32,000 nucleotides of DNA from Geobacter metallireducens GS-15 (GTDB lineage Bacteria > Desulfobacterota > Desulfuromonadia > Geobacterales > Geobacteraceae): positions 2,460,001-2,492,000 of the forward strand of contig NC_007517.1 of assembly GCF_000012925.1 (NCBI RefSeq), read 5' to 3'. Positions 5,100 to 32,000 of the stretch are shown one piece after another. The position numbers were made by a program, and so were the translations under genes. The stretch's first letter is position 1. Each line of letters opens with the position of its first letter. Under the pieces are notes generated by a model, which was given only the letters and a program-made list of their open reading frames with translations, ran no database searches and was not told where the DNA came from.

Positions 5100-5101
5100 G
5101 A

Positions 5102-8744: not shown

Positions 8745-8790
8745 ATGAACTCCGCGAATCCTTGTAGGTTTTCCCTTTCCGCCGCCATCG

Positions 8791-13426: not shown

Positions 13427-13750
13427 CGTGTCCTCCTTGACCCTTTGCTGTGTGACTTTGCCGACTGTTTCGTATGCGCAGATTGGCTCTGCGGCAACCC
13501 AGGGCAATAGTACCAGCAGCCCCCGGGTGAGGAGGTAGGTGCATGTCTGTTTTTGGATTAAGACATTCGAGAACCGGAGGCATGTCCGCACCCGCGGACT
13601 GACCGGCGTTAACTGTAGGATATCTTAGCAGGCCAATCAGGAAGGGAAGATAGGAGTACGTCTGTTTTTGAACTAGGAGTTTTTGGTAGAAACAGGGTAG
13701 GAATTCAGAGAAGCACAGTGCGGCGTAGTCCTACGGGGACGGATAACCGT

Positions 13751-17995: not shown

Positions 17996-18117
17996 CCGTG
18001 CTGGCTCCCCTGGCCCGCACCATCACCTGAAAAACAGTATCTCAAGCCAGCCACGCAGACTTCACGTCACGCAGCCAGCCAGCCAGAGACAAGAACTCAT
18101 TAAAAGGAGATTTGTCA

Positions 18118-19824
18118 ATGACTGCCCTGCGCACCACCTCCCTTGCCTTTGCCTTTGTTCTGACTATGTCAGCCGCCGCCCATGCCAGCCCTGGTCAAGC
18201 GATCCGGTCCGATGGAAATGCTGATGATGCCTACTCTGCCGGGAAACGTAACAATTCGAACAACCCGAATCAGGAAATTCCCGGGCAAATCACTGCCGAA
18301 AACTGGGCCTATCAACTGGTCGCCGATTTGGAAGAAAAATACGGGGCGGGATGGAAACTCGCTGAAGGACAGAGCGCCTCCCGGAATGAGCTGCTGGACA
18401 AATTCGTCGACGCGCTCACCAGAATTGCAGACAGGTACGACAAGGAGGGGGGGCAGGCGGTCTCTCGGGATGACCTGGAGAACATTCGCACTCTGATTGT
18501 TGCGCTGGAGGATGAGCTTTTCGGAAACAACAGCTACACCACTATCCGCACCACCATTGAACAACTCCTTACGTTGGTCGAACCCCCGGTCCCCGTTTTT
18601 AAGTACAAGGTAGGCGTCAACGGCTTTTTGAGGGGCGAAGGTTCGTCCAACTTCAGGCTGGCGGACTTGAGTTATGCCGCGGGCAAGGATGCCGGCCGGA
18701 TGTTGTATCGGGTCAAGCCGTTCGCCTACTGGCATCCCAACGATTATCTGGATGTCCATCTTGAGGGGCAGGGATATGGTTTTACCGGCGAAGGCTCCAG
18801 GGATTCCCATGAATTCAATCTGTATCAGGGATTCGTGGAAGCCAAGCTTCCCCAGGGAGACGGTTCAGGCAAAAACCTCCTGGCCCTCAAGGCCGGCCGC
18901 CAGGAGTTCAATTACGGCAGCGGCTTTATCCTCGGGACCGACAGTTTCTTCAACGGCCTGACCTTCGATGCCGGAAGACTCAGGGTACAACCCTCGTGGA
19001 ACTGGTTCAACAACCTCTCCCTCGACCTTTTGGGCGGCTCCTATGCCAGGCCATTTTCCGATGGAGTGAACGGAGACTTGCTGGGCGCCTATCTTACCTA
19101 CCAGCCATCCGCAGACAGCAGCTTCGAAGCATACGGCTTCCGCGACACCGGGTCTGAGGAGCGCCATTCCGGTGAACATCTGGATACCCTGGGCTTTCGC
19201 AGCACCAGTTCAGTTGGCATTTTCGGGCTGGAATACGAACTGGCCTACCAGACCGGCAAATCCTTCAACGGCGCAAGCAACGACAATATTTTCGCGTTCG
19301 GCGGACACGTTGACCTGACCGGCGAAATTCCCATCAGGGTTTTCGACAACTCCTACAACAGCTCGGTCTTCCTCAGCTACGCCATGGGGTCCGGGGATAA
19401 AAATGCGGTCAACGGAACCTCATCGGCCCGGGAATTCCGTAACCCGAACAACGACACGTCATTGGTGGGCGACATGGGACTCATCGGCGACCTGTCCGGC
19501 TTCGACGCCGGGGAACAGCACGCCAGCGGCATCCAGGTCTACACCCTCGGCTTCGGGATTGACCTCTCCAAGAAGCTGAACATCTCCGCCACGGGACGCA
19601 AGTTCGTGGCTGACAAGGTGGCGGACGGCATCAGCCGCGACATCGGCATCGAGACCGACCTCACCCTCACCTACACCCACAACAAGGACTATGCCCTGGT
19701 GCTGGGTTACGACCACTTTTTCACCGGCAGGTTCTTCCGCGACGCCAACGCCGGAAACAGAGACATCGACTATGTCTTTGCCATGCTCCAGTTCAATTAC
19801 GACTGGACAAAGCGCAAGCGGTAG
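18118..19824 (+). CDS. Outer-membrane beta-barrel, alginate-export (Alginate_exp) family, with an SLH-like/coiled-coil N-terminal extension
   Basis: The ATG at 18118 lies 7 nt after AAAGGAGA. The signal peptide ends AAAHA. LKAGRQEFNYGSGFILGTDSFFNGLTFDAGRL is the Alginate_exp core motif. Alternating beta-strand patterns follow, with a C-terminal aromatic end (FAMLQFNYDW). The N-terminal part is discussed in the findings. Confidence 0.8.
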   Translation: MTALRTTSLAFAFVLTMSAAAHASPGQAIRSDGNADDAYSAGKRNNSNNPNQEIPGQITAENWAYQLVADLEEKYGAGWKLAEGQSASRNELLDKFVDALTRIADRYDKEGGQAVSRDDLENIRTLIVALEDELFGNNSYTTIRTTIEQLLTLVEPPVPVFKYKVGVNGFLRGEGSSNFRLADLSYAAGKDAGRMLYRVKPFAYWHPNDYLDVHLEGQGYGFTGEGSRDSHEFNLYQGFVEAKLPQGDGSGKNLLALKAGRQEFNYGSGFILGTDSFFNGLTFDAGRLRVQPSWNWFNNLSLDLLGGSYARPFSDGVNGDLLGAYLTYQPSADSSFEAYGFRDTGSEERHSGEHLDTLGFRSTSSVGIFGLEYELAYQTGKSFNGASNDNIFAFGGHVDLTGEIPIRVFDNSYNSSVFLSYAMGSGDKNAVNGTSSAREFRNPNNDTSLVGDMGLIGDLSGFDAGEQHASGIQVYTLGFGIDLSKKLNISATGRKFVADKVADGISRDIGIETDLTLTYTHNKDYALVLGYDHFFTGRFFRDANAGNRDIDYVFAMLQFNYDWTKRKR

Positions 19825-19885: not shown

Positions 19886-21823
19886 TTAAATACTGTCCAC
19901 CCAGTGAGTAGCCGCCAAGAACCCCTCATGAATCGCATCCTTGATTCTACGGGGGGATTTCTTGTCACCTATGATGCAATATGGTAATCCGGCACGGTCA
20001 AGATCGCCGACGAGAAGATCGTCTGACTCAAAGCCGACAGATATGACCAGACATCCAAGCGGGACGGTAATCACCCCCTCGAGCGTTTGGATGACCGCTT
20101 TTCCATCCTTTATTTCCTGAACAGAGGATGAGGTATGGATATTCACCCCCCCCTTGTTCAGATGGTCCAAAAGAACCCACCTCAGGGTTGCGCCCATGTC
20201 AGCAAGCGGTTTTGGTCTTATCTCCACCAGGGAGACGTCAAATCCTTTTGAACTGAGATAATCGGCGGTTTCCCCCCCCACCAGACCGGCACCGATGATG
20301 ACCACCGGATTGTCGGGTGAGACCGTGCCATCCAGAATCTCGCTGCTCGTGTAACAGGGAACCTGTTCCATTCCATTAATGAGAATGGTTCTCTCCTTGG
20401 CGCCGGTAGCCAAAATGACTGCGTCGAAATTTTCAGAAAGTCGTGAAAAGTCGGTTTCCGCAACGACTGGCACCTTCAGTCCCGCCAGTTCATGGGTAAG
20501 ATAGCGGATCAGTCCGGCAATCTCGGATTTGTGTGGGGGGGCTGCAGCAGTGCCAAGCCTTCCGCCTGTTTGCCGGTTCTTTTCCAGAAGGGTCACCTTG
20601 TGACCGCGCGTAGCCAGGACGCGTGCAGCCTCCATGCCTGCAGGGCCGCCTCCTACCACGAGTATGCGTTTTTTGGGTTTGGCAGGCGGCAACGAACCAT
20701 CATCGGTCAGGTCGGCATTCAGCGAGCATTCGATCCTGTCCCTGGCAAAGGCGCGGTCAAAACAGTTACAGCATGAAATGCAGGGGCGGATAGATTCGTC
20801 CTTTCCCGCCTGAGTTTTGTTGGGCCAGTCTGGATCCACGATCAGGGCTCTCCCTAGCGTTACCATGTCCAGCTTTCCTTCGGCAATGACCTGACGCGCC
20901 ATTTGGGGTTCAGTAATACGGACGGCGCACGAAACTGGTATAGAGACGACCTCTTTGATTTTTGTCGCATAGGGGATGAAATGGCCTTGGGGAACGGAGG
21001 GACCTATCTGATGGACCGGCGCATCGTGCCACCCAGCAGTTACGTTAAGGAGATGAATCCCCCATTTTTCCAGTTCGATCGCAAAGTTTCGGTGATCCGC
21101 ATCATCCATCCCCCCGGGCATATTGTCCGTTGAAGACATCCGGAAGATAAGTGGAAAATCATGCCCGACCTCACGCTTCACCGCTGCGATGACCTCTCTT
21201 ATAAAGGTCCGGCGCTTCTCTTCATCCCCGCCGAACCTGTCAGTGCGCTGATTTGTCAGGGGAGAGAGAAACTGACTGATCAGGTATCCAGTTGCCCCCA
21301 GAAATTCAACGGCCTCGAATCCCGCGCGCTTTGCCCGACCTGCAGCTGCGGCAAAAGATTCGATGATCCCTTCTACCTCTGCAGTGGTCAACTCGTGCGG
21401 CAGCTCCTTCGTGTAGCGGGAGGGCAAAGCCGAAGGAGCGACCGGATCCAAGCCGCCGTTGATCGCCTTTTTTGCATAACGCCCGGCATGGTTCAGTTGC
21501 AGGGCCGGAACGGCGCCGCCTTCTTTGATCGCCCTGGCGACTTTTTCCAGAGACGGCAACCACTCATCCCGGTCCGCCCCGATCTGATGCTCATCCTGCC
21601 TTCCGGCCGGATCCACATGGCAGGCGCCGACGATGATCAGGCCGGCCCCACCTTTGGCTCGCCGCCGATAGAACCGGAGCCATTCATCACTGATGTCGTA
21701 TCCGTCTATGGGATAGTTGAGGATGAACGCAGGCATGATGATCCGGTTCTTTATGGTCAGCCCGCTGATGGTAATTGGAGAAAAGAGATCTGGCGCTTCT
21801 GCCGGGACTGGTTTTGTGTTCAT
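19886..21823 (-). CDS. NADH:flavin oxidoreductase of the FadH (2,4-dienoyl-CoA reductase)/enoate-reductase family: OYE-like FMN domain, [4Fe-4S] motif, FAD/NAD(P) domain
   Basis: The ORF extends to 21919. I prefer the ATG at 21823 (MNTKPVP...), which clears the upstream SDR stop. OYE motifs are IKNRIIMPAF and LQLNHAGR. The Cys cluster is CISCCNC-x11-C. Rossmann motifs are ILVVGGGPAGMEAA and VVIIGAGLVGGE. Confidence 0.85.
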   Translation of the reverse strand: MNTKPVPAEAPDLFSPITISGLTIKNRIIMPAFILNYPIDGYDISDEWLRFYRRRAKGGAGLIIVGACHVDPAGRQDEHQIGADRDEWLPSLEKVARAIKEGGAVPALQLNHAGRYAKKAINGGLDPVAPSALPSRYTKELPHELTTAEVEGIIESFAAAAGRAKRAGFEAVEFLGATGYLISQFLSPLTNQRTDRFGGDEEKRRTFIREVIAAVKREVGHDFPLIFRMSSTDNMPGGMDDADHRNFAIELEKWGIHLLNVTAGWHDAPVHQIGPSVPQGHFIPYATKIKEVVSIPVSCAVRITEPQMARQVIAEGKLDMVTLGRALIVDPDWPNKTQAGKDESIRPCISCCNCFDRAFARDRIECSLNADLTDDGSLPPAKPKKRILVVGGGPAGMEAARVLATRGHKVTLLEKNRQTGGRLGTAAAPPHKSEIAGLIRYLTHELAGLKVPVVAETDFSRLSENFDAVILATGAKERTILINGMEQVPCYTSSEILDGTVSPDNPVVIIGAGLVGGETADYLSSKGFDVSLVEIRPKPLADMGATLRWVLLDHLNKGGVNIHTSSSVQEIKDGKAVIQTLEGVITVPLGCLVISVGFESDDLLVGDLDRAGLPYCIIGDKKSPRRIKDAIHEGFLAATHWVDSI

Positions 21824-21896
21824 TGTGATAACCCTTGCGCAGTTTCCCGCGATGTATTTCTTGACGGGGTCAGCCGGAAATTCCGACCTCGAGTTG

Positions 21897-22664
21897 CTAG
21901 AAAGCCGACCAGCCGCCATCCATGGAGACGATCTGTCCTGTCATGTAGCTTGAGGCCTCCGACGCCAGGAACACCACGACATCGGCGACTTCCCGGGGCT
22001 GACCGCCCCTTTTCATGGGGATCTTCAGCAGGTTCTGCTCCAGAATCTTCGGATTTGTCTCAATATCCCTCTTGGCCATTTCGGTAACGATATAGCCCGG
22101 GGCAATACAGTTCACCCGGATATTGTGACGGGCCCATTCCACGGCCAATCCCCTGGTCAGTTGGACAACCCCACCCTTGCTGGCTATGTATGACGCAATA
22201 TTGGGAAAGCCCCTGAGACCGAAGACGGAGGCATTGTTGATAACACAGCCGTTCTTGTTCTTGATCATTTCCCTGCCCACAACCTGGCTACAGAGGAAAT
22301 ATCCTTTGAGGTTCGTATCAACGACCGAGTCCCAGTCCTCCTCGGTAAGATTCACAAACGGCTTGACCAGATTGATGCCGGCATTGTTGACCAGGATATC
22401 GATCGTTCCGAATTGGGCGATCCCCTTATCCACCATCGCCTGAATGTCATCGGCCTTCAGCATGTCCGTTTTGACCGTAAGACACTGGACCCCTTTTGAG
22501 GTCACCTCGGAAGCGACCTTGGCCATACTGGCTTCGTTGCGGCTCGCCAGCACCAGATTGGCACCTGCTTCCGCCAGACCCAGTGCCATGGCTTCACCCA
22601 GCCCCTGACTGGCACCGGTGACGATAGCGGTTTTACCTTTCAGACTGAAACGTTCCAAGCCCAT
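21897..22664 (-). CDS. SDR-family oxidoreductase (FabG / 3-hydroxyacyl-CoA dehydrogenase-like)
   Basis: The ATG at 22664 follows GAGGAGGG at 7 nt. Motifs are GKTAIVTGASQGLG, NNAG and YIASKGG (YxxxK). Confidence 0.9.
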   Translation of the reverse strand: MGLERFSLKGKTAIVTGASQGLGEAMALGLAEAGANLVLASRNEASMAKVASEVTSKGVQCLTVKTDMLKADDIQAMVDKGIAQFGTIDILVNNAGINLVKPFVNLTEEDWDSVVDTNLKGYFLCSQVVGREMIKNKNGCVINNASVFGLRGFPNIASYIASKGGVVQLTRGLAVEWARHNIRVNCIAPGYIVTEMAKRDIETNPKILEQNLLKIPMKRGGQPREVADVVVFLASEASSYMTGQIVSMDGGWSAF

Positions 22665-22697
22665 GGGATTTCCCTCCTCTGTATGCATTTATCATTC

Positions 22698-23471
22698 TCA
22701 TTTACCAACAAATTTCGGTTTCCGTTTCTCTTTGAATGCCCGGCGCCCTTCCTTGACATCCTCCATGAGCAACAACCCGGGGCTCAGCAGATCCTCCCAC
22801 CGGTAATCATCATCCATGCCGCGATGCAGCATGCGCCTGGTCACCTGGACCGAGAGCGGCGGGCACTCCGCAATCCTGTTCGCTATCTTCATGGCCTCTG
22901 CCATCACCTGGTCCTGGGGAACGACCTTGTTGACGATCCCGTATCTCTCCGCCTCGTGGGCATCGATCTTCTCCCCTGTCAGGAGGAGTTGGGATAGCCG
23001 CTTCCTCCCCATGACCTCCCGCGCCCTGCCGAGCATTATGACGTGCACGGCGCCGAAGGTAGCGCCAGGCAGTGAGAATTTTGCCGTTTCCGAAGCGATG
23101 GCAATATCACTCACGATCGCCACCTTGCAGCCGTAACCGATGGCGGCCCCGTTTACCGCGGCAATAACCGGCTGGGGGATATTTTCCAGCCGCCGGAAGG
23201 CCCTGGCGTCAACCTTGATATACTCTGACGAGTCGCGCAGGTTATCGAAATTCAGCTCCTCCAGATCGGCTCCGGCGCTGAACGCCTTGTCGCCCGAACC
23301 GGTGATGACCACCGCCTGCACTTCCCGGTCCGACTCTATCTTGTCAAGGACACAATCAAGCTCCCGGTACATGACCGTGTTGCAGGCATTGAGCTTGTCA
23401 GGGCGGTTCATGGTAATAACTGCAATGGCTCCGCGCTTTTCGAAGATAATCGTTTCGAATTTTTCGGTCAT
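22698..23471 (-). CDS. Crotonase-superfamily protein (enoyl-CoA hydratase/isomerase fold), both canonical catalytic Glu positions apparently substituted
   Basis: 257-aa ORF with VITMNRPDKLNA and FSAGADL. The oxyanion-hole region reads AAVNGAAIGYGCKVAIVSD (K where hydratases have E) and FSLPGATFG (G where hydratases have the PE Glu). Confidence 0.85.
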   Translation of the reverse strand: MTEKFETIIFEKRGAIAVITMNRPDKLNACNTVMYRELDCVLDKIESDREVQAVVITGSGDKAFSAGADLEELNFDNLRDSSEYIKVDARAFRRLENIPQPVIAAVNGAAIGYGCKVAIVSDIAIASETAKFSLPGATFGAVHVIMLGRAREVMGRKRLSQLLLTGEKIDAHEAERYGIVNKVVPQDQVMAEAMKIANRIAECPPLSVQVTRRMLHRGMDDDYRWEDLLSPGLLLMEDVKEGRRAFKEKRKPKFVGK

Positions 23472-23529
23472 GGTTCTCTCCTCAGGGAATCCAGATTGAT
23501 TTCAGTTTTTGCCACACCGGCATTCCGCG

Positions 23530-24369
23530 TTAACCGGCAGCTGTTCGAAACAGCAGATCCGTAAAATAGCGGGATTCGATGCGCAGAGCCGATTCCAGGT
23601 CGACTTGGGCGCCTTCGACCGCCACCGCCAGTATCGATTCCTGTGCCGGTTGCCCGTCAGCGCATTTTTTCCGCAGGATGGCCGGTGCAACAAAGATCTG
23701 TTGCGCTATATTGGGGCTGGAAGGTGTCCCCCCCGGCATCTTATATCCTTTCTGGTCCCAGGGCTGACCGGCAGCGGGATTGGCAGCGATCCAGTCTCGT
23801 GCCATGGATTGGAGTTCGCCACTGCTGGCAGCTAGTTGGTCAATCAGACCAGTCTCTTTCGCCTTTTCCGGGGCAAGTTTTGTTCCTGCCATGAGGAGCG
23901 GCAACCCCTTTTCGAGCCCAATCAGGCGGACCAAGCGCGCTACTCCACCGTTGCAGGGAATCAGACCTGCCGCTACGTCCGGCAGGCCGATCGCGATGGC
24001 AAGATCGTTGACCGCTATGCGGTGATGGGCGGCCAGGCAAAGTTCGTAATCTCTTCCCTGAGTCGGACCATTGATGGCTGCAACGACCGGTTTGCCAAGA
24101 GTTTCAAGACGCCGCAGCATGCTTTTGTAAGCACTGAGGCGGTTAAAAACCTGCTGACGTGCCGAAAGGCTGTTTTCGCTGACAGTGCAGGCGGTAGCGG
24201 GTGATGCCTGATCAATGGTGATAATGACACCACTGATGGTATCGCGTTCAAGGCGATCGAGAAGCTCTCCCGCCGTTCCTTCATCCATGATGCTGGCCGG
24301 CTGGCCTGCGGGATTGATGGTAACGGTTACGATACCCTCTCCATCCCTTTCATATCTGTATGCGCTCAT
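23530..24369 (-). CDS. Crotonase-fold protein resembling the N-terminal hydratase domain of FadB/FadJ, with a C-terminal extension
   Basis: The ORF extends to 24465. The ATG at 24369 follows AAGGTGGG and clears the thiolase stop. AAINGPTQGRDYELCLAAHHRIA retains the first Glu. GLPDVAAGLIPCNGG has D in place of the second Glu. Confidence 0.7.
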   Translation of the reverse strand: MSAYRYERDGEGIVTVTINPAGQPASIMDEGTAGELLDRLERDTISGVIITIDQASPATACTVSENSLSARQQVFNRLSAYKSMLRRLETLGKPVVAAINGPTQGRDYELCLAAHHRIAVNDLAIAIGLPDVAAGLIPCNGGVARLVRLIGLEKGLPLLMAGTKLAPEKAKETGLIDQLAASSGELQSMARDWIAANPAAGQPWDQKGYKMPGGTPSSPNIAQQIFVAPAILRKKCADGQPAQESILAVAVEGAQVDLESALRIESRYFTDLLFRTAAG

Positions 24370-24407
24370 ATATGTCCCACCTTTTATTGTTTGATTGTGT
24401 GCCGCTG

Positions 24408-25616
24408 TCACAGCCGTTCGACAATGGTCGCTATCCCGATTCCGCCACCGACGCAGAGGGTGCACAGGCCATAGCGCAGCCTGCGCCGCTCCAGTTCATC
24501 CAGAACGGTTCCTAATATCATGGCACCACTGGCCCCAAGGGGATGTCCCATCGCGATTGCCCCGCCGTTCACGTTGATCTTTTCTGCCGGTATGTCCAGG
24601 TCTTTCCGGAATTTCATGACGACTGCGGCGAAGGCTTCATTAACTTCGAACAGATCGATGTCGCTGATCTTCAGCCCCGCTTTCTGCAGTACCTTGCGAG
24701 TAGCTGCCGTCGGACCGGTGAGCATAATTGTCGGTTCGCAACTGGTGATCACCCCGGCCACCACGCGTCCACGCGGCGTGAGTCCCAACTCCTTCCCCTT
24801 GGCGGAACTGCCTACCAGCACCGCAGCGGCTCCATCAACAATACCCGACGAGTTCCCCGGCGTATGGACATGGTTGATCCCCTTGAGTTGCGTATATTTG
24901 CGTAACGCAACCGTATCGAAACCGACGGCGCCAACCCCCTCGAAGGAGGGTTTCAGTTGGGCCAGACCTTCCATGGTCGTACTTTTGCGGATGAACTCGT
25001 CGTGGCCAAGGATCGTCAAGCCGTTTCTGTCCTTCACCGGAACCAGCGATTTAGAGAAATGGCCTTTCTCGGAAGCCTCCGCCGCCTTCTTCTGGGACTC
25101 CAGCGCAAAGGCATCCACATCTTCGCGGGAAAATCCCTCCAGTGTAGCTATCAGATCCGCAGATACCCCTTGAGGGATAAAGCCGGTCTTAAGGCTCGTT
25201 TCCGGGTCCAGGCCAAGGGCACCTCCATCGGAACTGATGGTTACCCGCGACATGGATTCCACGCCACCCGCCACCACAAGATCTTCCCATCCGGATATCA
25301 CCTTCATCGCCGCCAGGTTCACCGCCTCCAATCCCGAAGCGCAGAACCGGTTCAACTGGAAGCCGGCAACCACATCGTCCCATCCGGCATACAACGCCGC
25401 GGTTTTGGCGATATTCCCCCCCTGATCACCCAGGGGGGTGACGCACCCAATGACGATGTCTTCCACCTGAGATGTGTCCAGATTGTTACGCACCTTCAAC
25501 TCATTCAAGAGGTCACCCAGCAAGGTAACCGGCTTTACCTCGTGCAGCGATCCATCACTCTTTCCCTTGCCTCGCGGCGTACGTATCGCGTCATAGATGT
25601 ATGCTTCATTTTTCAT
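24408..25616 (-). CDS. Acetyl-CoA C-acyltransferase (degradative thiolase)
   Basis: 402-aa ORF. The active-site Cys is in [12 protein letters not shown]. Other motifs are [29 protein letters not shown] and [13 protein letters not shown]. Confidence 0.9.
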
Positions 25617-25636
25617 ACAGATCCCCTCTTGCTAAA

Positions 25637-26773
25637 TTAGAGTCCCATCAACTGCGCTACGATTTCCCGATGGTAGGTCGCATCTCCGAGTGCCTGCTCC
25701 GCGGCCTTTGCACGACGGAAATAGATCTGCAAATCGCTCTCGTCAATAAAGCCGACGCCACCCATCACCTGATGCCCCAATGCGGTCAATTTCCGATAGG
25801 AGTCGCTCACCCACGCCTTGCACATGGCAGCTTCCTTTTCATAGGAAAGCCCCTGACCGATGCGCTTACTGGCATAAAAGGTCAGAAGCGCTGAACTGTC
25901 CAGACAGGTGAGCATATTGGCACAATGGTGCTGGATCGCCTGGAAGCTCCCGATGGGTTGACCGAACTGCTTGCGCGTCTTGGCATACTCCACGACCATC
26001 TCCAGGACCTTCCGTGCTCCGCCTACCATCTCCGCACACTTTGCAACCGAGGCTACCCGTAGCACACCTTGCAGCAGCTGCCACCCTTCCCCCGCTTCAC
26101 CTAGTAGGGAATCTCCCGACACCAGAACATTATTGAAGACAACGTCACACTGTTTGTCCCTGGCAATGGTATTGAGAACCTCTATCGACACTCCCTGAGA
26201 TCTTCTGTCGACAAGAAAGAGGCTTATTCCCTCTTCACCATTTTTACCGCCGTCGCCTGTCCTGGCAGCGCAGATGATCGTATCAGCTACATGGGCAAAG
26301 GGGACAAAGCGCTTGCATCCATTCAACAGAAAACCATCAGCCACTTTTTTCGCAGTAGTCGCAATCTCGCACGCTGACGGTCCGTCGCCGGTCTCCTCCA
26401 GCGCCAGTGTCATCAACCGCTTCCCCAGGGAGACTTCCTCCAGGACCGACCGTTTCTGTTCAGGGGTACCTGCTGTCAGGATGGTGAGCGCGCCCAAAAC
26501 CACCGTGGAGAAAAAGGGGCCGGCATACCCGGCGTAGCCCATTTCCTCCAAGATCAGGGAGAGTTCAAAGAATGTTGCTTCGAACCCTCCGAATTCCTCG
26601 GGGATTATCGTTCCCATCCAGCCAAATTCCGCTATGCTCTCCCACAGTTTGCGACTGTACCCCTGTTCATCTTCTTCAACTTCGCGAACAAGCGAACTCT
26701 TCAACTCCTCCGTAAAAAAGGACCGAGCGGTATCTTTAAGTATCTTCTGTTCATCATTCAAACTGTAGTTCAT
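25637..26773 (-). CDS. Acyl-CoA dehydrogenase family protein, apparently lacking a catalytic Glu at either canonical position
   Basis: 378-aa ORF with the ACAD fold throughout. The C-terminus reads AAEQALGDATYHREIVAQ where MCAD-type enzymes have IYEGTxEIQR. The helix-G region GVLRVASVAKCAEMVGG has no Glu where IVD/LCAD-type enzymes do. Confidence 0.85.
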   Translation of the reverse strand: MNYSLNDEQKILKDTARSFFTEELKSSLVREVEEDEQGYSRKLWESIAEFGWMGTIIPEEFGGFEATFFELSLILEEMGYAGYAGPFFSTVVLGALTILTAGTPEQKRSVLEEVSLGKRLMTLALEETGDGPSACEIATTAKKVADGFLLNGCKRFVPFAHVADTIICAARTGDGGKNGEEGISLFLVDRRSQGVSIEVLNTIARDKQCDVVFNNVLVSGDSLLGEAGEGWQLLQGVLRVASVAKCAEMVGGARKVLEMVVEYAKTRKQFGQPIGSFQAIQHHCANMLTCLDSSALLTFYASKRIGQGLSYEKEAAMCKAWVSDSYRKLTALGHQVMGGVGFIDESDLQIYFRRAKAAEQALGDATYHREIVAQLMGL

Positions 26774-26784
26774 TCCTCGCCCCC

Positions 26785-27951
26785 CTATGCTCTCGGCAAC
26801 CCTAAACCGCGTTGTGCCATGATATTCCGCTGGATTTCGGCGGTCCCCCCGTAAATGGTCTCAATAACAGTCCAGCGGTAGAGCCATTCAGGCAAACCGT
26901 CCAGAATAGCTCCATTTGCACCCTCCCTCAGTTGGCCTCTTGCCCCCAGTATCTCAAGCGCTGTATTGGCCAGCCGCTGTTCGAAATCGGTCAGGAAGTT
27001 CTTCTCCATGGATGCCTGGTAATTGGGTATCTTGCCGTTGTCCAGCATGTGGGCAAGCTGGAAGTAAAGGTGATGGATTATCTCCAGTTCAATCTCCAAC
27101 TGGGCAAGTTTCTGCCGAACCAGTGGGTCCTTGGTGAGCGGCATGCCGTTGCGCGTAACCGTTTTGAGATAGGCCACCAGATCCTCATAAAACTTTTTGT
27201 AGTGACCGAACGGAAACATCCGTTCAAAATCGAGCGCCGCCATGATGTACTTGAAACCGCTGTTGATTTCACCAACAAGGTTCGCACGGGGGACAACCAC
27301 GTCGTCGTAAAAGACCTCGTTGGTCCTGGTTCCAGCCATGGTGATCATGGGGCGTATGGTTATCCCCGGACTTTTGAGATCCACAATGAGAATCGATATC
27401 CCTTTGTGTTTGGGCCCTTCAAGATTGGTCCTTACCGCCAGCCAATGATAATCGGCAACATGGGCATGGGTGTTGAATGTCTTCTGCCCGTTAACAATCA
27501 GGTGATCACCCTTGTCCGCCGCTCGCATCTCAAGGCCCATGAGGTCCGAACCTGCTGCAGGCTCGGAATAGCCGAGGGCAAACTCGATTTCACCACTCGC
27601 GAGTCGGAGAAGATAATTTTTTTTCAGGTCGTCGTTCCCGTATCTGAGGATGCTCGGCCCGGCCATGTGCGCACCAGCAAAATGTATCGGCACCCGTGCA
27701 TATGCCATTTCATTCCGGATGGCATACATGAGCATTTCAGACGAGTTGAGCCCACCGTATTCTTCCGGCCAGCAGGGGGTCAACCAACCATTGGCGGCAA
27801 ATTTCCGGACGAATTTCCGGCCTTCTTCGCCACCATAGATATACTCAAGATGGTGCGACTCGGCGAGCAGTTCAGGAGTGACTTCGCTCTTGAGAAAACG
27901 GCGCACCTCCTCCAAAATTGCACTCTCCCTGCTGTTCAATTCTATTTCCAT
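26785..27951 (-). CDS. Acyl-CoA dehydrogenase, IVD/LCAD-type catalytic-base arrangement
   Basis: 388-aa ORF. ALDFERMF has Glu in the IVD/LCAD helix-G position. The C-terminal IYGGTAEIQRNIMAQRGLGLPR has Gly at the MCAD Glu position. Confidence 0.9.
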   Translation of the reverse strand: MEIELNSRESAILEEVRRFLKSEVTPELLAESHHLEYIYGGEEGRKFVRKFAANGWLTPCWPEEYGGLNSSEMLMYAIRNEMAYARVPIHFAGAHMAGPSILRYGNDDLKKNYLLRLASGEIEFALGYSEPAAGSDLMGLEMRAADKGDHLIVNGQKTFNTHAHVADYHWLAVRTNLEGPKHKGISILIVDLKSPGITIRPMITMAGTRTNEVFYDDVVVPRANLVGEINSGFKYIMAALDFERMFPFGHYKKFYEDLVAYLKTVTRNGMPLTKDPLVRQKLAQLEIELEIIHHLYFQLAHMLDNGKIPNYQASMEKNFLTDFEQRLANTALEILGARGQLREGANGAILDGLPEWLYRWTVIETIYGGTAEIQRNIMAQRGLGLPRA

Positions 27952-28002
27952 TGGTTTCCTCCTGAATGAATTACCAGGACGGTAAATACATCAGCTCTAT
28001 AC

Positions 28003-28050
28003 CGAACGTTCGATTACTATCTATATAGTACATGTCATTTGTCCCGTCAA
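28003..28050 (-). promoter_or_regulatory. Sigma70-like promoter with a downstream 10-bp perfect palindrome (candidate operator) ahead of the ACAD genes
   Basis: The minus strand reads TTGACG (28050-28045), a 17-nt spacer, then TATATA (28027-22). CGAACGTTCG lies at 28012-28003, between the -10 and the RBS (AGGAGGAAACCA ATG 27951). Confidence 0.4.
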
Positions 28051-28067
28051 GAGAAAAAAACAAGAAA

Positions 28068-28961
28068 TCATTTTAATCCCACCAGATGCATAAGTATCTG
28101 CCGTTGGGCTTCCACGAAGGTTTCGGGGGGAACGATACCACCGATATTTTCATCGGCACAGTACTCGGCAAGCTCTCTGGCAGCATCATCCAGATTGCCG
28201 GTACGCCGGTATACGGAGATCATCAGGTTCCGCCGCGCCGTGGCCGCCGCGAGTGATGCCGTCACAAAGCCGGCGGCCTCGTCACCCGTCACATAACCGC
28301 AATGGTCCGCACAGTAGTAAGCAATCGGAAGTTCCTTCAACCGGCAAAGACTCTCTTCGAATATTCCGTAATTGGACGTACCGTAAGTTACGATCTTTTC
28401 CCCGCTGGGGACGCCGCCGGCATCGGAAGGAAAGAGCGCCTCAAGGCGAGGAACATAGGCGGATACGGAACATGGTGAATGCCCCGGGGTGTCGAATATT
28501 TGTACCTCAAGGCCACCTAGATCGATCATGTCACCGTTGGCAACGGCAATACCGGGGTACCCTTCCCGCCACTCCAGATCACAGGAAGCAGTGGATTCGC
28601 TCAAACCGGAGGATTCAATAACGTAACGGCTGGCAGCATTGATGGCATGGAGAGCCTTGGGTTTTTGGAGAACTTCCAGGGAACGGCATGATCCGTAGAG
28701 TACCATGCCCGGCTTGCGCCGCAAAAAGAAGGGAACAATGCCAACGTGGTCGAAGTGGGAATGAAGGATGAGGAGCTTGTCGATTTTCGTATCATCAATA
28801 CGGAAGGCCCGGAACTGTTCTAGAATATCCGGAACGATACAGCTTATCCCTCCGTTGATCAGCATGGAACTCTCCGCTCCCTCAAGGAGGTAAACGCACG
28901 ACGTTTCACTCCCCAAAAACCATAAACCTTCGGCGATCCTCCCCGGTTTTCGCACTCTCAT
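28068..28961 (-). CDS. MBL-fold metallo-hydrolase
   Basis: 297-aa ORF with LILHSHFDHVG (HxHxDH). Its ATG overlaps the upstream stop as ATGA (28961-28958). Confidence 0.85.
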   Translation of the reverse strand: MRVRKPGRIAEGLWFLGSETSCVYLLEGAESSMLINGGISCIVPDILEQFRAFRIDDTKIDKLLILHSHFDHVGIVPFFLRRKPGMVLYGSCRSLEVLQKPKALHAINAASRYVIESSGLSESTASCDLEWREGYPGIAVANGDMIDLGGLEVQIFDTPGHSPCSVSAYVPRLEALFPSDAGGVPSGEKIVTYGTSNYGIFEESLCRLKELPIAYYCADHCGYVTGDEAAGFVTASLAAATARRNLMISVYRRTGNLDDAARELAEYCADENIGGIVPPETFVEAQRQILMHLVGLK

Positions 28962-30742
28962 AGGGCATCCTCTTCAGATCCTTGGTTTAGAATCGGGGGA
29001 AGAAAGCAGTGCTTCCTCACATCATAAATCCCCCAAGGCGTCATCCGGAAAAACGGAACTCCAACGTAGGTAAGGAAGTGCTGGGTAAGAAAGGCATTTT
29101 CCAGATTGCTCCCATTGTTGCGCGCCCATTGATTTACCGCATCGATTCCAGCTCCGACATCGGCAGCAGACGCCTTGGTCATAAATCCGCCAAGGGGGAG
29201 CGGCAGTTGAGCCTCGATCCTGCCATCCTGGACCGTTACCACTCCACCACCCAGCTCAATCATACGATTGTAGGCAATGGCCATATCATCATCACTGGTG
29301 CCGATGACCAGGGTGTGATAGGGCTCCGACGCGAGTGAATTGCTCATGGCACCCAGACAGCCCCCCACTCCCACGAGAAAGCCTATGGAAAAGCCGCCTT
29401 CAGGATGAGGCATGGCCATCTTCATCACCCGGCCCTCTTCGCCGGCGCAGGAAACGACCCCGTCTTTAACCGGCAGATGCAGATCAATACGCCGGGTAAC
29501 CGTACGGTCCATGATCTCGATGGCAGGCACCAATACATCGCCGGTACCGGCGGAAGCGACCCTGAAATCGGCTGGCGAGGCGTGCAGCACGGAAGGACGA
29601 TACGCCGGCAGTTCCAGCTCATCCAGCCCATGCCAGTCGGGAGTGGGCACTCCGTTGCGTGCGACAACCGCCCCTTGCGCCATAACCCATTTGGGACGCG
29701 GTTCCCGCAGATCATTGAGACAGAGGATGTCAGCATAACGGCCGGGGGCAATAGATCCGATCTGCCCTTCGATCCGGAAATAGCGGGCAGGGTTCAGAGA
29801 CGCCATACGATAGGCATCCAGCGGCGGGATCCCCGCTTCCATGGCAGCAGAGAGGGGATGATCCATATGGCCGAAAGCAGCAAGGTCATTCGGGGGAACC
29901 CAGTCCGGGGTCAGCATGAGGCGGGACCTGTCCACTCCCTCCTTCATGACCAGCGAGGCAAGTTCGGGCAGATCGTAACGGGCTGGTCCGTGACGTAGCA
30001 CTACATAGAGACCGGCACGCAGCCGATTAAGCGCTTCGGCAGACGTCAGCGCTTCGTGACAATCGGTAAGTCCCGCCGCAGCGATCACCTGGAGGTGATC
30101 CGCCCTCGCGCCGGGATTGTGTCCTTCGCAGCACTTTCCATGACGCCGCGCAATGTCGAGCCGGGCAATCAGGCGCTGGTCACCCGCCAGCAAACGCCTC
30201 CAGGGAAGAAATTCGGAGGTACCCAGAACCGTTTCATCGGCAAGAAGGACATCCAGTTCAGCGTCAGTCAATCCCAGCCCTGCAAAGTATCCTGCTTCTT
30301 CCAGTTCGGGTGCCCAACCGGATATGGGGACCGTCCAGCCGAAATGCAAAGGCAGGCTTGTCGCTGCGGCACGCAGACAGGCCAGACCTGGAGCACCGAA
30401 ACGGGCCACGACTGCCAGGGTGTCGTTGACCACCATAGTCGTTCCAAGCGGCAACAACGCTTCCGCTAAACGACGGGGGGAGAGGATATTGTCGAAATGG
30501 GCATGGGGATCCACATAACCAGGAACGAGTATCCCCCCTTCCGCATCCAGAAACTGCGTCTCAGGCCCGATCATCCCCCGTGACGGTCCCACATATGCCA
30601 CACGGCCACTGGCGACAGCCACACCAACCCCGGACAGAATCTCGCCCGAATGGACGTTGAGTACCCGGCCGTTCTCGATATAGAGATCGGCGGAGCGCCG
30701 ACCGCACGCCACCGCCATCAGGTCTGTACGCATCTGCAGCAC
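28958..30742 (-). CDS. Amidohydrolase of the adenine deaminase family (amidohydrolase barrel plus Adenine_deam_C-like domain)
   Basis: 594-aa ORF with a GTG start at 30742, 6 nt after AAGGA. It has LVPGYVDPHAHFD (HxH metal motif). The C-terminal GFLVGVGGCLGAMSNSLASEPYHTLVIGTSDDDMAIAYNRMIELGGGVVTVQDG resembles the adenine deaminase C-domain. The substrate is not inferable. Confidence 0.8.
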   Translation of the reverse strand: MLQMRTDLMAVACGRRSADLYIENGRVLNVHSGEILSGVGVAVASGRVAYVGPSRGMIGPETQFLDAEGGILVPGYVDPHAHFDNILSPRRLAEALLPLGTTMVVNDTLAVVARFGAPGLACLRAAATSLPLHFGWTVPISGWAPELEEAGYFAGLGLTDAELDVLLADETVLGTSEFLPWRRLLAGDQRLIARLDIARRHGKCCEGHNPGARADHLQVIAAAGLTDCHEALTSAEALNRLRAGLYVVLRHGPARYDLPELASLVMKEGVDRSRLMLTPDWVPPNDLAAFGHMDHPLSAAMEAGIPPLDAYRMASLNPARYFRIEGQIGSIAPGRYADILCLNDLREPRPKWVMAQGAVVARNGVPTPDWHGLDELELPAYRPSVLHASPADFRVASAGTGDVLVPAIEIMDRTVTRRIDLHLPVKDGVVSCAGEEGRVMKMAMPHPEGGFSIGFLVGVGGCLGAMSNSLASEPYHTLVIGTSDDDMAIAYNRMIELGGGVVTVQDGRIEAQLPLPLGGFMTKASAADVGAGIDAVNQWARNNGSNLENAFLTQHFLTYVGVPFFRMTPWGIYDVRKHCFLPPILNQGSEEDAL

Positions 30743-30778
30743 GGTATTTCCTTTACGGGGTAACAGGGCTACCCCGCC

Positions 30779-32000
30779 CTAGATCTCTCGTCCGATCCTG
30801 CCGCCGTCATGAATGGCATGGAGGAGGTTGAGCGGCTCGGAGCAATCACCGGCTGCAAAGAGCTCCGGTATCTGCCGGCGCAGCGCCTCTACCGCTTCAC
30901 TGTCATTCGTGAAACCGAGCATCGGTACGACGGTAGCGGCAGGGATCGTCATCCTGTTTCCACCGGCATCACGGATGACCAGACCACGCTCCGTCACTTC
31001 CTCAAATCCGGCAATACCCCTGACAATGGTCACACGCTGTTGTGACAGCCTGTTCATCAGCTTGAATCTGAGGGTGGAGACCATATCCGCAGCCAATTCT
31101 TCATCCTGCGTCACGATGGCCACTTCCCGGCCATGTTCAGCCAGCATATCCGCAAGTTGGCAGGCCATCATCCCCCCCCCCATGATGGCAACACTCTTGC
31201 CGAACATGACGGGAATGCCGAGTCCCGCCAGCCGCTTGCGCAGGGAGAGCGACAGGGGTCTGTCGAGAAAACTCCCGCCAAACCGGATGAGTTGGCCGCG
31301 CCAACCGGTCCGGATCGTCCCGGCGCCAGGGCCGGAAATACCGGACATCATGAGGCGAATGGCACCACTGCTGACGACATTCTCCCTGTTTATACCCGGA
31401 ATGTCAGGTTTGATCGGTTTCGCTCCTATGGCGACAACAACGACATCCGTCCCATCGATACCCAAATGCCCAGGCCCGGCCGGCTGCCCGAGCATGAGGC
31501 GAACCCCTTCATTTGAGACCTGGGCGGTTTGACACGCCGTCAGTTTTTCCACTTCCGCCTTTGAGGGAACCATGGCCTGTAACAGCATGGCGCCGCCCAA
31601 CTGTCTGCTCCTTTCCTGCAACGTCACATCATGCCCCCGCATGGCTGCAATCCGGGCAGCTTCCATACCTGCCGGCCCCCCCCCCACCACAAGAACCCGC
31701 CTTTTCCTTTCAGCGGGCCTGATCCTCCTTTCGTCTTCCCGGCCGGCAGCATAGTTGACCGTACACTCCACACCCTCCCCCGCGGTTGCCCGCTCATAAC
31801 ACTCATGGCAGTCAATGCACGGCACGATCTCGGCGATACGTCCTTCGGCTGCTTTCAGCGGCCAGTGGGGATCGGCGAATAGCTGGCGACCGATGGCAAC
31901 CAGGTCAACCTTTCCCTGGGCCAGAATGGATTCGGCAACGTCAGGGGTCTTGATCCTCCCGACCCCGATAACCGGGATGCCGACAGCCCGTTTAACCGCC
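30779..32000 (-). CDS. Second FadH/enoate-reductase-family flavoprotein, 5' end outside the window
   Basis: The track starts the ORF at a GTG (31825). The same frame stays open to 32000 and reads AVKRAVGIPVIGVGRIKTPDVAESILAQGKVDLVAIGRQLFADPHWPLKAAEGRIAEIVPCIDCHEC, the end of the OYE barrel. Cys cluster CIDCHEC-x11-C, VLVVGGGPAGMEAA and VAIMGGGMMACQLA follow. Confidence 0.85.
   Translation of the reverse strand, partial: AVKRAVGIPVIGVGRIKTPDVAESILAQGKVDLVAIGRQLFADPHWPLKAAEGRIAEIVPCIDCHECYERATAGEGVECTVNYAAGREDERRIRPAERKRRVLVVGGGPAGMEAARIAAMRGHDVTLQERSRQLGGAMLLQAMVPSKAEVEKLTACQTAQVSNEGVRLMLGQPAGPGHLGIDGTDVVVVAIGAKPIKPDIPGINRENVVSSGAIRLMMSGISGPGAGTIRTGWRGQLIRFGGSFLDRPLSLSLRKRLAGLGIPVMFGKSVAIMGGGMMACQLADMLAEHGREVAIVTQDEELAADMVSTLRFKLMNRLSQQRVTIVRGIAGFEEVTERGLVIRDAGGNRMTIPAATVVPMLGFTNDSEAVEALRRQIPELFAAGDCSEPLNLLHAIHDGGRIGREI

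Follow-up and report, generated by a model that had tools for sequence, protein, structure and literature searches.

On what substrate does Geobacter metallireducens GS-15 employ the ten co-directional genes that fill positions 19886-32000 of the stretch analysed here, a 32,000-nucleotide segment of its chromosome (2,460,001–2,492,000; hereafter the window)? Adding 2,460,000 to a window position gives the chromosome position, and with this conversion the ten minus-strand open reading frames (ORFs) of the block coincide exactly with the consecutive genes Gmet_2193–Gmet_2202 in the table of Butler et al. 2007, which places Gmet_2193 at 2479886-2481823 and Gmet_2202 at 2490779-2492845 (PMC1924859, Additional file 1). 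The block sits inside the 300-kb "aromatics island" (Gmet_2037-2284) described in that work (PMC1924859). As an observation the cluster is not new, since it had been noted in 2007 and its genes carried annotations, and the label attached to it in the earlier papers is "predicted fatty acid oxidation" only. The evidence presented here supports a conserved, specialised acyl-CoA pathway. Regarding its substrate, the reading that we tentatively favour, with less than even confidence, is that the block would constitute a modified beta-oxidation line for a bulky, unsaturated and most likely alicyclic or ring-substituted acid, processed as its CoA thioester.

The block comprises the following genes:

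19886..21823, minus strand: Red1 (Gmet_2193, 645 amino acids), with OYE-type FMN domain, [4Fe-4S] motif and FAD/NAD(P) domain (Pfam, NCBIfam)
21897..22688, minus strand: short-chain dehydrogenase/reductase (SDR; Gmet_2194), FabG-like, with TGASQGLG and YxxxK motifs
22698..23471, minus strand: ECH_a (Gmet_2195), crotonase fold with both hydratase glutamates replaced
23530..24369, minus strand: ECH_b (Gmet_2196, 279 amino acids), stand-alone hydratase domain of Mycobacterium tuberculosis-type FadB
24408..25616, minus strand: thiolase (Gmet_2197) of the M. tuberculosis FadA (Rv0859) type, with Cys92, GNSSG and Cys388 present
25637..26773, minus strand: acyl-CoA dehydrogenase (ACAD) small subunit (Gmet_2198), presumed non-catalytic beta subunit
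26785..27951, minus strand: ACAD large subunit (Gmet_2199), presumed catalytic alpha subunit
28068..28961, minus strand: metallo-beta-lactamase (MBL)-fold protein (Gmet_2200, 297 amino acids), with HSHFDH at 28746-28763
28958..30742, minus strand: amidohydrolase (Gmet_2201) of the adenine-deaminase family, with Amidohydro_1 and Adenine_deam_C domains
30779..32000, minus strand: Red2 (Gmet_2202, C-terminal 406 of 688 amino acids), with the end of the OYE barrel, [4Fe-4S] motif and FAD/NAD(P) domain

ORF calls, Pfam and NCBIfam confirm the ten genes and the order proposed in the initial annotation of this DNA, which in the direction of transcription runs from Red2 through the amidohydrolase, the MBL-fold protein, the two ACADs, the thiolase, the FadB/FadJ-N-like crotonase, the Glu-less crotonase and the SDR to Red1, with intergenic gaps of 36, -4, 116, 11, 20, 38, 58, 9 and 73 nucleotides (nt).

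The comparison of gene neighbourhoods revealed that the Glu-less crotonase recurs across phyla together with the SDR and an OYE-type [4Fe-4S] reductase, as a triad. In 11 of the 12 contexts examined, a homologue of ECH_a (61-85% identity) has both an SDR and an OYE-type reductase as neighbours, and the SDR, always found beside the Glu-less crotonase, adjoins ECH_a in L002, L011, L016-L021, L094, L095, L097 and L098 (fetched loci are designated by L numbers). The SDR itself presents PDB matches to FabG-like proteins only, with no specific relative. In the window and in L095, a metagenomic contig, the reductase of the triad is Red1, and eight metagenomic loci present ECH_a, the SDR and a Red1-like reductase (52% identity) in the window order. 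A Terriglobales metagenome-assembled genome (MAG) shows the arrangement Red1-MBL-ACAD-ACAD-ECH_a-SDR, and a Syntrophales MAG the arrangement ACAD-ACAD-SDR-ECH_a-SDR, together with a ferredoxin/NAD(P)-oxidoreductase-like gene and a Red2-type reductase. A Dehalococcoidia genome combines ECH_a-SDR with an ACAD, MaoC and three family III CoA transferases, and has no OYE gene. The most extensive conservation was observed in L095, where 17 genes, from MeaB to the SDR, keep the same order and orientation, with amino acid identities of 57-88% for the window proteins; given this conservation, the arrangement cannot be attributed to chance. Homologues of ECH_a at 62-85% identity were found only in MAGs and metagenomes, under Desulfuromonadales, Thermodesulfobacteriota, Desulfosarcina, Terriglobales and Dehalococcoidia labels, and none of them bears a functional name.

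The initial annotation had considered that relatives might keep this cluster as an ordinary fad operon. This is not what the neighbourhoods show; the amidohydrolase and MBL genes stay linked to the cluster in relatives, and the acyl-CoA genes have no orthologues in G. sulfurreducens. Thioesterases (MBL, TesB-like or 4HBT) lie beside Red1 orthologues almost everywhere. Partners that change from one locus to another include biotin carboxylase with HMGL/PYC_OADA carboxyltransferase, hydantoinase A/B, AMP-ligases, long ACADs, DapB-like dehydrogenases, SnoaL-like proteins, DUF2284, a FixABCX-type electron transfer flavoprotein (ETF), BKACE and uptake-type genes of the DUF1302/DUF1329/MMPL set, which is associated with the uptake of hydrophobic substrates. 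The presence of SnoaL-like, family III CoA transferase, BKACE and DUF1302/DUF1329/MMPL genes beside the triad or its partners in relatives argues for a bulky or cyclic substrate.

Several of the fetched loci have features of their own. A set comprising biotin carboxylase, HMGL/PYC_OADA carboxyltransferase and biotinyl-carrier genes recurs in L096, L021, L094 and L002, where it adjoins the triad or amidohydrolase paralogues, often with a DapB/DAP_DH-like dehydrogenase; in G. metallireducens, the DapB-like Gmet_2230 and a split amidohydrolase copy, Gmet_2219/2220, lie about 20 kb away. L098, which shares its 4.6-Mb genome with L007 and L010, carries an OYE-type reductase, a FixABCX-type ETF, a Zn-ADH and several SDRs, as well as three SnoaL-like proteins, DUF2284, ECH_a, an ACAD pair, BKACE and a sigma-54 activator; judging from gene content, its ETF set may provide a low-potential electron supply for the reductase.

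The sequence of ECH_a is unusual at the catalytic positions. In an alignment with crotonase 5z7r, the catalytic glutamates are replaced by Lys (GYGCK, 23124-23138) and Gly (LPGATFGAVH, 23043-23072), and the C-terminal region presents a conserved YRWEDLL (22785-22805). The Lys/Gly/His signature and YRWEDLL are common to all nine ECH_a orthologues examined, and the paralogous crotonases keep both glutamates (alignment A3). On these residues, a crotonase of the Lys/Gly type cannot be a normal hydratase. The initial annotation had described the protein as BadI/MenB-like. BadI is a member of the MenB subfamily. No BadI model appears among the best 25 NCBIfam matches of ECH_a, and its PDB matches are closest to canonical crotonases (8e-50 to 1e-40), with MenB structures scoring more weakly (2e-32 to 2.6e-26). 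The resemblance to BadI is hence one of analogy and not of family, and the assignment of ECH_a as a BadI/MenB orthologue was rejected on the grounds that canonical crotonases match better.

Both reductases present the cluster signature CxxCxxC-x11-C and the two Rossmann motifs that had been noticed at the outset. In Red1, for which M33 (21823) is the most likely start, the cluster motif CISCCNCFDRAFARDRIEC spans 20726-20782 and the Rossmann motifs lie at 20636-20653 (GGGPAG) and 20273-20293 (GAGLVGG); in Red2 the equivalent positions are 31763-31819 (CIDCHECYERATAGEGVEC), 31667-31684 (GGGPAG) and 31163-31180 (GGGMMA). Pfam assigns Oxidored_FMN and Pyr_redox_2 to Red1, and the C-terminal end of Oxidored_FMN and Pyr_redox_2 to Red2, so that the FadH-type one-chain architecture is seen at full length in Red1 and as barrel end, Cys motif and both Rossmann motifs in Red2. 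The two proteins share about 33-37% identity, and NCR is the best solved-structure match of both.

Red1 is best matched in the PDB by NCR (6qkg, 1e-88) and FadH (1ps9, 4e-86), with identities of 31% (BLASTP) or 32% (alignment) to NCR and of 34% to Escherichia coli FadH, and its best NCBIfam matches (BilR, BaiCD and mycofactocin OYE) reach 413-419 bits against cut-offs of 750-825. These values, below every equivalog cut-off, support the earlier view that the reductases are not housekeeping FadH. Red1 shares with FadH the three modules, the four-Cys [4Fe-4S] motif and the equivalents of Tyr166 and His252 (Tyr180 and His266), which are invariant in 23 orthologues (alignment A1) and which in E. 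coli FadH are proton donors, as reportedly found by Hubbard 2003 and Tu 2008; it differs from FadH in the replacement of Glu164 by Thr, in a CxxCxxC instead of a CxxCxxxC spacing and in a context that is no fad regulon. For aryl-CoA reductases of type III (NCR, DHNCR, AprB-E), identities to NCR/DHNCR of 37-57% have been reported (PMC13365417), and since Red1 falls below this range it was rejected as a member of that group. By sequence, Red1 is thus placed outside both FadH proper and the aryl-CoA reductases of type III.

Red2 departs further from these enzymes. Exact-sequence look-ups with the proteins of the window yielded nothing beyond an identical contig of 2.7 kb, a single scan of the genome collection returned only relatives of Red2 (52-57% identity), and the clade formed with its homologues in L095 and L002-L005 is 52-58% identical to the window fragment. 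Three conserved active-site segments, QLxHxGRY, GxxGYL and GWH(D/E), set the proteins of this clade apart from FadH, NCR and Red1: QLxH(A/T)GRY is altered, the Tyr166 position is occupied by Leu or Met and the GWH segment with His252 is absent, all as read from the orthologues, the N-terminal catalytic part of the window Red2 lying beyond 32000. The clade also presents a specific insertion of about 40 amino acids (IRxGWxG...SLSLRK...GIP..FGK), located at 31196-31315 in the window, which FadH lacks. It appears, on sequence grounds, to be a distinct and uncharacterised subfamily, and the description of the pair as two FadH-type reductases is to be qualified in that the Tyr and His of FadH and NCR, kept in Red1, are missing from the clade of Red2. 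Three further proteins, P0037-P0039, were considered as Red2 orthologues and excluded by the alignment, in which they form a Red1-like sister clade (52-56% identity).

The two ACADs show a complementary loss of catalytic bases. Gmet_2198 lacks the base at both known positions (ALGDAT, VLRVAS), and Gmet_2199 has lost the canonical Glu of YEG (IYGGT) and bears a Glu at the IVD-type position (LDFER, 27220-27234). The best PDB matches of Gmet_2199 are the steroid-type Tcur3483 (5e-71) and 4x28_A (5e-65), with the catalytic Glu aligned; those of Gmet_2198 include Tcur3481 and ChsE5, with homomeric ACADs matching better than Tcur3481. We take 4x28_A to be ChsE4 and the Tcur3481/Tcur3483 structure to be an IpdE1-IpdE2 homologue. 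As in Tcur3481/Tcur3483, ChsE4-ChsE5 and PimC/PimD, the genes are adjacent and one subunit bears the IVD-type Glu. The best NCBIfam matches are PimC_large for Gmet_2199 (199 bits against 624) and PimD_small for Gmet_2198 (200 bits against 653), and the window proteins thus remain at about 200 bits against the equivalog cut-offs of about 620-650 for the Rhodopseudomonas palustris PimC/PimD pair. It is natural to infer that Gmet_2199/2198 form an alpha2beta2 enzyme, and the pair, which is kept in five other loci (L002, L011, L095, L096 and L098), would suit bulky substrates, given its matches to steroid-type alpha2beta2 ACADs and, more weakly, to PimC/PimD. The steroid-type large subunit and the complementary loss of bases in the two subunits likewise speak for a bulky or cyclic substrate.

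A beta-oxidation-like set had also been predicted, and the thiolase and the FadB-N-like crotonase are indeed present; both, however, are of the mycobacterial trifunctional-enzyme type. The thiolase scores 682 bits with NF006090, above the cut-off of 514, and matches chain C of PDB 4b3h with an E-value of 5e-173. ECH_b, whose start is most likely 24369, matches residues 23-307 of chain A of the same structure (6e-63, the next match being at about 1e-17) and the N-terminal FadJ/FadB model in NCBIfam. The gene order, with a FadA-type thiolase gene followed by a match to FadB residues 23-307, corresponds to that of M. tuberculosis, which is presumably fadA then fadB. ECH_b differs from M. tuberculosis FadB in lacking the 3-hydroxyacyl-CoA dehydrogenase domain, in presenting Asp for the second Glu (GLPDV, 23974-23988; the first is kept in GRDYE, 24043-24057) and in an oxyanion loop that reads GRD instead of GGG. 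On sequence, the pair looks like a FadA/FadB operon minus the dehydrogenase half of FadB, and the dehydrogenase activity must then come from the SDR.

These two genes are one argument for the main rival explanation, an auxiliary beta-oxidation of unsaturated and/or methyl-branched aliphatic acids. Under this reading, Red1 would reduce 2,4-dienoyl-CoAs and ECH_a would isomerise enoyl- or dienoyl-CoAs, a split trifunctional enzyme would be made up of the thiolase, ECH_b and the SDR, and the ACAD pair would be a chain-length variant, with the mutase and associated genes beyond the window serving branched C4/C5 units. Besides the similarities of the thiolase to FadA and of ECH_b to the FadB hydratase domain, this explanation draws on the conservation of FadH Tyr166/His252 in Red1, on the treatment of the genes as generic fatty-acid oxidation in earlier papers and in a metabolic model, on the growth of G. 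metallireducens on butyrate, isobutyrate, valerate and isovalerate, and on the fact that crotonase-family isomerases, too, are devoid of the hydratase glutamates. It leaves unexplained, however, the adenine-deaminase-like hydrolase, the PqsE-like MBL-fold protein, the divergent Red2 and the steroid-type alpha2beta2 ACAD, and the SnoaL-like, BKACE and carboxylase neighbours in relatives are atypical of fatty-acid operons. The identity of Red1 to FadH is only 34%, and this value, the lack of G. sulfurreducens orthologues and the linked amidohydrolase and MBL genes argue against ordinary fatty-acid oxidation. We consider this explanation unlikely overall, though the strongest of the rivals.

The MBL-fold protein had been taken for a generic second hydrolase. 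The fold is present, but the protein resembles the acyl-CoA thioesterase PqsE of Pseudomonas aeruginosa: its residues 2-290 align with PqsE residues 5-292 (2e-17, the next PDB match being at 4e-8), so that the two proteins align over their full length, and they share the HxHxDH metal motif and a similar size. The similarity is low, and there is no quinolone-biosynthesis context; Gmet_2200 is a probable PqsE-like acyl-CoA thioesterase. MBL paralogues adjoin Red1 orthologues in L007, L011 and L095. The ORF of 297 amino acids from 28961 overlaps the amidohydrolase stop by 4 nt, and the gene probably begins 32 codons earlier than annotated in 2007 (2488068-2488865), the additional part being window positions 28866-28961; the ATG at 28961 is indicated by the ATGA overlap, by the PqsE alignment from residue 2 and by the same length and overlap in L095.

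The closest solved relative of this protein being a 2-aminobenzoylacetyl-CoA thioesterase, the block could alternatively encode a side-chain route for aryl-substituted acids of the phenylpropanoid or phenylalkanoate type that feeds benzoyl-CoA. In such a route, the ACAD, hydratase, SDR and thiolase would turn arylpropionyl- or cinnamoyl-CoA into aroyl-CoA and acetyl-CoA, the OYE enzymes would be cinnamate/enoate-type reductases and the MBL-fold protein would hydrolyse aroylacetyl-CoA. The location of the cluster within the aromatics island agrees with this, as do the hydantoinase genes resembling acetophenone/acetone carboxylase that adjoin the module in the Terriglobales MAG, and enoate reductases belong to the OYE-type [4Fe-4S] flavoreductase family. 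Yet the PqsE similarity conveys little information on the acyl group, the cluster contains no aromatic-acid ligase and reductases would be superfluous in an oxidative side-chain route. Expression data point in the same direction. In the part of the 2014 microarray table available, Gmet_2201 gives values close to array background with benzoate, toluene or phenol, where induced genes reach 12-15, and Gmet_2193, 2197, 2199, 2202 and 2205 are absent from the portion of that table with benzoate p-values up to about 0.02. None of the six genes from Gmet_2193-2216 looked for in the 2007 benzoate versus acetate list is listed there, and of twelve neighbourhood genes sought only the neighbour Gmet_2222 appears. 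Going by this limited expression evidence, the cluster would lie outside the benzoyl-CoA core pathways, and the aryl side-chain route is improbable.

The amidohydrolase had been assigned to the adenine-deaminase family, and both its domains and all its binuclear-metal ligands (HxH, Glu, His, His-Glu and Asp, aligned with 3nqb) are present. Its scores stay below the adenine deaminase cut-offs (TIGR01178, 273 bits against 472.5; PRK10027, 227 against 768 bits), and a role as a true adenine deaminase was rejected in view of these scores and of a context of acyl-CoA genes instead of purine salvage. Its close clade, which is small (at least 54% identity), is accompanied by the ACAD pair in the three contexts examined (window, L095 and L096). 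The conserved ligands of this C-N hydrolase family member, the tandem paralogues in L096, the split copy Gmet_2219/2220 with an Amidohydrolase_2 gene nearby and the altered active site of the Red2 clade would fit a degradation of a nitrogen-containing ring or amide by the upstream trio, in which a conjugated lactam is reduced, the ring is opened hydrolytically and the product is beta-oxidised downstream, following the logic of dihydropyrimidine or quinolinone degradation. Against this, the contexts examined for the amidohydrolase clade are all acyl-CoA gene sets without ammonia- or amine-handling genes, no xanthine-oxidase-type hydroxylase lies nearby and members of the amidohydrolase superfamily have also been proposed as C-C hydrolases in thn clusters (PMC12016498), making nitrogen-ring degradation very unlikely.

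A last explanation starts from the constancy of thioesterases as neighbours of Red1 orthologues, MBL-type in the window, L095, L011 and L007. An unsaturated acid might be converted to its CoA ester, reduced by the OYE enzyme and released by a thioesterase, with the pathway acting as electron sink or detoxification and not in carbon catabolism. Two Desulfuromonadales-type loci, L008 and L013, contain a partial OYE gene, a Red1 orthologue (73-74%), an AMP-dependent CoA ligase and a TesB-like thioesterase, and in L013 the promoter and operator motif described below lies between the partial OYE gene and the Red1 orthologue. This minimal set, which in L013 stands behind the same operator, would be compatible with a reductive role; the window reductases, by contrast, are embedded in a complete oxidative set of ACADs, dehydrogenases and thiolases that a reductive shunt does not need, and we regard this role as highly improbable. 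The aryl-alkanoate, nitrogen-heterocycle and reductive-shunt explanations are all less likely than a pathway for bulky, probably alicyclic acids or the auxiliary oxidation of aliphatic ones.

The only sizeable gap in the block, the 116 nt between the MBL and ACAD genes, holds the promoter and palindrome that had been claimed for it, together with a good ribosome-binding site:

27998..28050, minus strand: internal promoter-like element in the MBL/ACAD gap (27952-28067)

The element consists of TTGACG (28045-28050), a 17-nt spacer and TATATA (28022-28027), followed by an imperfect 19-bp inverted repeat, TAATCGAACGTTCGGTATA (27998-28016), that constitutes a candidate repressor operator. The 13-nt core of this operator occurs exactly once in the window. 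A promoter scanner did not list the element, the -10 hexamer of which lacks T at position 6, but the promoter call was retained because the architecture is conserved in three genomes: the only further fetched loci with this -35 hexamer, spacing and repeat (CGAACGkTCGGTATA) are L095, in its MBL-ACAD gap, and L013, upstream of its Red1 orthologue. This pattern fits an internal promoter under repressor control.

No CoA ligase, CoA transferase or regulator was found within 19886-32000, as the initial annotation had stated, and its expectation that the cluster runs past 32000 is borne out by the published gene table, in which it extends to Gmet_2216, and by the L095 contig. The whole cluster spans about 27 kb (Gmet_2193-Gmet_2216), the window block being its promoter-distal part, and the search beyond the window that had been recommended yields both a CoA transferase and a regulator among the following genes of the 2007 table:

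Gmet_2204, beyond the window: crotonase
Gmet_2205, beyond the window: CoA transferase, 599 amino acids, fused
Gmet_2206, beyond the window: SDR
Gmet_2207, beyond the window: crotonase
Gmet_2208/2209/2210, beyond the window: B12 mutase small and large subunits, MeaB
Gmet_2211, beyond the window: long ACAD
Gmet_2212, beyond the window: crotonase
Gmet_2213, beyond the window: thiolase
Gmet_2214, beyond the window: small protein
Gmet_2215, beyond the window: HpaB/AbfD-like protein
Gmet_2216, beyond the window: TetR regulator at the cluster end

NCBIfam searches with the orthologues of these upstream genes (mutase, CoA transferase, ECHs, SDR and 3HCDH) returned generic matches only. The TetR regulator Gmet_2216 is probably the protein acting at the operator.

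The searchable literature on the locus tags Gmet_2193-2216 comprises the 2007 island paper and homology labels in papers of 2009 and 2014. The 2009 genome paper lists the acyl-CoA genes of the block as "unknown" and without G. sulfurreducens orthologue (PMC2700814). The 2014 metabolic model, in the parts available, assigns generic homology-based reactions and calls Gmet_2201 adenine deaminase, and Gmet_2193, 2194, 2200 and 2202 were not found in the portion of its supplementary files covered.

Two known systems provide precedents for a pathway of this kind. On limonene, Castellaniella defragrans 65Phen cannot grow without the 2,4-dienoyl reductase MrcC of its monoterpene ring-cleavage cluster mrcABCDEFGH, which, like the window, joins a FadH-type reductase to an ACAD, a hydratase and an SDR dehydrogenase, with a 3-oxoacyl-CoA ring hydrolase of crotonase fold in addition, and a second dienoyl-CoA reductase and an NADH:flavin oxidoreductase are encoded nearby (PMC4109377). 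The mrc enzymes include BadK/H/I-like ones, MrcD and MrcE being close BadH and BadI homologues (85-88% identity), whereas the SDR and ECH_a of the window are not demonstrably BadH/BadI-like, and the mrc listing is without the adenine-deaminase-like hydrolase, the PqsE-like MBL-fold protein and the FadA/FadB-N pair, all present in the window (PMC4109377); the comparison is one of enzyme logic and not of sequence orthology. In sulfate reducers that degrade polycyclic aromatic hydrocarbons (PAHs), OYE-family reductases (FMN/FAD/[4Fe-4S]) of the thn (naphthalene) and apr/apc (phenanthrene) clusters likewise lie beside hydratase, dehydrogenase, hydrolase, thiolase, ACAD and CoA-transferase genes, and ThnN, of the amidohydrolase superfamily, is a candidate ring-opening hydrolase (PMC12016498). 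ThnN and its homologue BamU are placed in that superfamily only (PMC12016498), and the benzoate-induced Gmet_2056 is annotated 'Amidohydrolase 2'. Set against these systems, the window and the retrieved Gmet_2203-2233 annotations contain no UbiD-type carboxylase, aryl-CoA ligase or thn-like genes, no ATP-dependent ring reductase is annotated among the retrieved Gmet_2188-2233 entries, Red1 is less similar to NCR than the type III reductases are and the Red2 clade lacks the conserved Tyr/His. The ThnN/BamU branch is presumably different from the Amidohydro_1/adenine-deaminase type of Gmet_2201.

With these precedents, and by analogy, the functional hypothesis appears reasonable. The identity of the locus and of its genes, the motifs, the synteny and the conservation are observed; what each enzyme does, how the subunits assemble, which regulator acts and what kind of substrate is used are inferred from them, as follows. 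The fused CoA transferase Gmet_2205 would activate the acid, and the alpha2beta2 ACAD Gmet_2199/2198, with a catalytic large and a non-catalytic small subunit, would add a double bond. Red1, with its FMN, [4Fe-4S] and FAD centres and FadH-type Tyr/His, could then reduce the conjugated dienoyl-CoA to the enoyl-CoA, which the FadB-N-type hydratase ECH_b would hydrate and the SDR would oxidise at the level of the 3-hydroxyacyl-CoA. The Lys/Gly crotonase would either hydrolyse a cyclic 3-oxoacyl-CoA, opening the ring as BadI, MrcE and ThnL do, or isomerise a double bond, and the FadA-type thiolase would shorten the chain. For the upstream trio, a probable role is to act on a ring or functional group beyond the reach of beta-oxidation, with Red2 as a divergent flavoreductase, Gmet_2201 catalysing a hydrolytic C-C or C-N cleavage and the PqsE-like thioesterase releasing or proofreading (3-oxo)acyl-CoA. 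The unit from the ACADs to Red1 would be transcribed from the internal promoter via the conserved operator, probably under TetR Gmet_2216. Reduction and opening of the ring of a bulky acyl-CoA, as initially suggested, would be plausible in the light of mrc and thn/apc.

A number of observations weigh against this pathway for a bulky, probably alicyclic acid. By sequence, ECH_a lies closer to canonical hydratases than to the MenB-type ring hydrolases, and the thiolase and ECH_b resemble M. tuberculosis FadA and the FadB hydratase domain, which are straight-chain fatty-acid enzymes. As crotonase-family isomerases share the absence of the hydratase glutamates, the triad fits aliphatic dienoyl-CoA processing equally well, and its neighbours vary widely among genomes (biotin carboxylases, hydantoinases and ligases). 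The genes beyond the window (isobutyryl/methylmalonyl-CoA-mutase-like, 3HCDH, ECH, thiolase and AbfD-like) could simply serve short-chain or branched acids, some of which are known substrates of G. metallireducens. Among alicyclic acids, only cyclohexanecarboxylate is known to support growth of this organism, and for it Kung et al. reportedly described in 2014 the use of Gmet_3304-3307.

Whole-window scans identified no tRNA or Rfam element. Outside the block, Gmet_2192 (window 18112-19824, plus strand), convergent with Red1 across a 61-bp gap, encodes an AlgE-type (Alginate_exp) outer-membrane beta-barrel that, on its predicted fold, could be an uptake channel for the cluster substrate, or may be unrelated to the cluster, given that its best match in 2007 was in G. 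sulfurreducens. An exopolysaccharide locus on the minus strand (window 81-11340) encodes two methyltransferases, an 883-amino-acid FG-GAP-repeat/GH32-like protein, a GT2 glycosyltransferase, a Wzx-type flippase, Wzz/GNVR and a Wza-like exporter; the GC content of 36-42% over the GT2, methyltransferase and flippase genes (about 4000-7000), compared with 55-60% elsewhere, suggests a foreign insert. Next to it, a 711-amino-acid protein of unusual architecture (window 11456-13591, minus strand) carries, besides two DUF5666 domains and three near-identical fibronectin type III repeats, a cbb3-type mono-haem cytochrome c domain (CAGCH) at its C-terminus.

The new elements are the conserved triad, the Lys/Gly crotonase, the altered Red2 active site, a probable thioesterase of PqsE type, a thiolase/crotonase pair derived from FadA/FadB, a presumed heteromeric ACAD and the conserved operator, together with the 17 genes shared in order with L095. 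Were the substrate to be ordinary unsaturated fatty acids, the finding would be routine. A more far-reaching possibility, which we deem rather doubtful, is that the crotonase, SDR, OYE reductases and metallohydrolase together make up an anaerobic route not described before, in which an alicyclic acyl-CoA (terpenoid-, naphthenic- or steroid-fragment-like) is reduced and its ring opened by hydrolysis. If so, ring C-C bonds would be hydrolysed by a new kind of enzyme, the crotonase and/or the amidohydrolase; Red2 would stand for a FadH/NCR catalytic subtype, likewise new, without the Tyr/His proton donors; and uncultured anaerobes would widely carry the module, homologues having been found in MAGs labelled Desulfuromonadales, Thermodesulfobacteriota, Syntrophales, Terriglobales and Dehalococcoidia. 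The locus also raises the questions of how a reductase of the FadH/NCR family works without those proton donors and of what role a hydrolase of the adenine-deaminase family plays in acyl-CoA metabolism. G. metallireducens is a genetically tractable model for the anaerobic degradation of aromatics, and a third of its 300-kb aromatics island, this cluster included, is still without an assigned substrate. The core of Lys/Gly crotonase, SDR, OYE-type reductase and heteromeric ACAD is found in MAGs of several anaerobic lineages, with G. metallireducens as its sole cultured representative. Solving the cluster in Geobacter would hence annotate a widespread unnamed module, and could reveal how ring-containing or recalcitrant acids are opened anaerobically.

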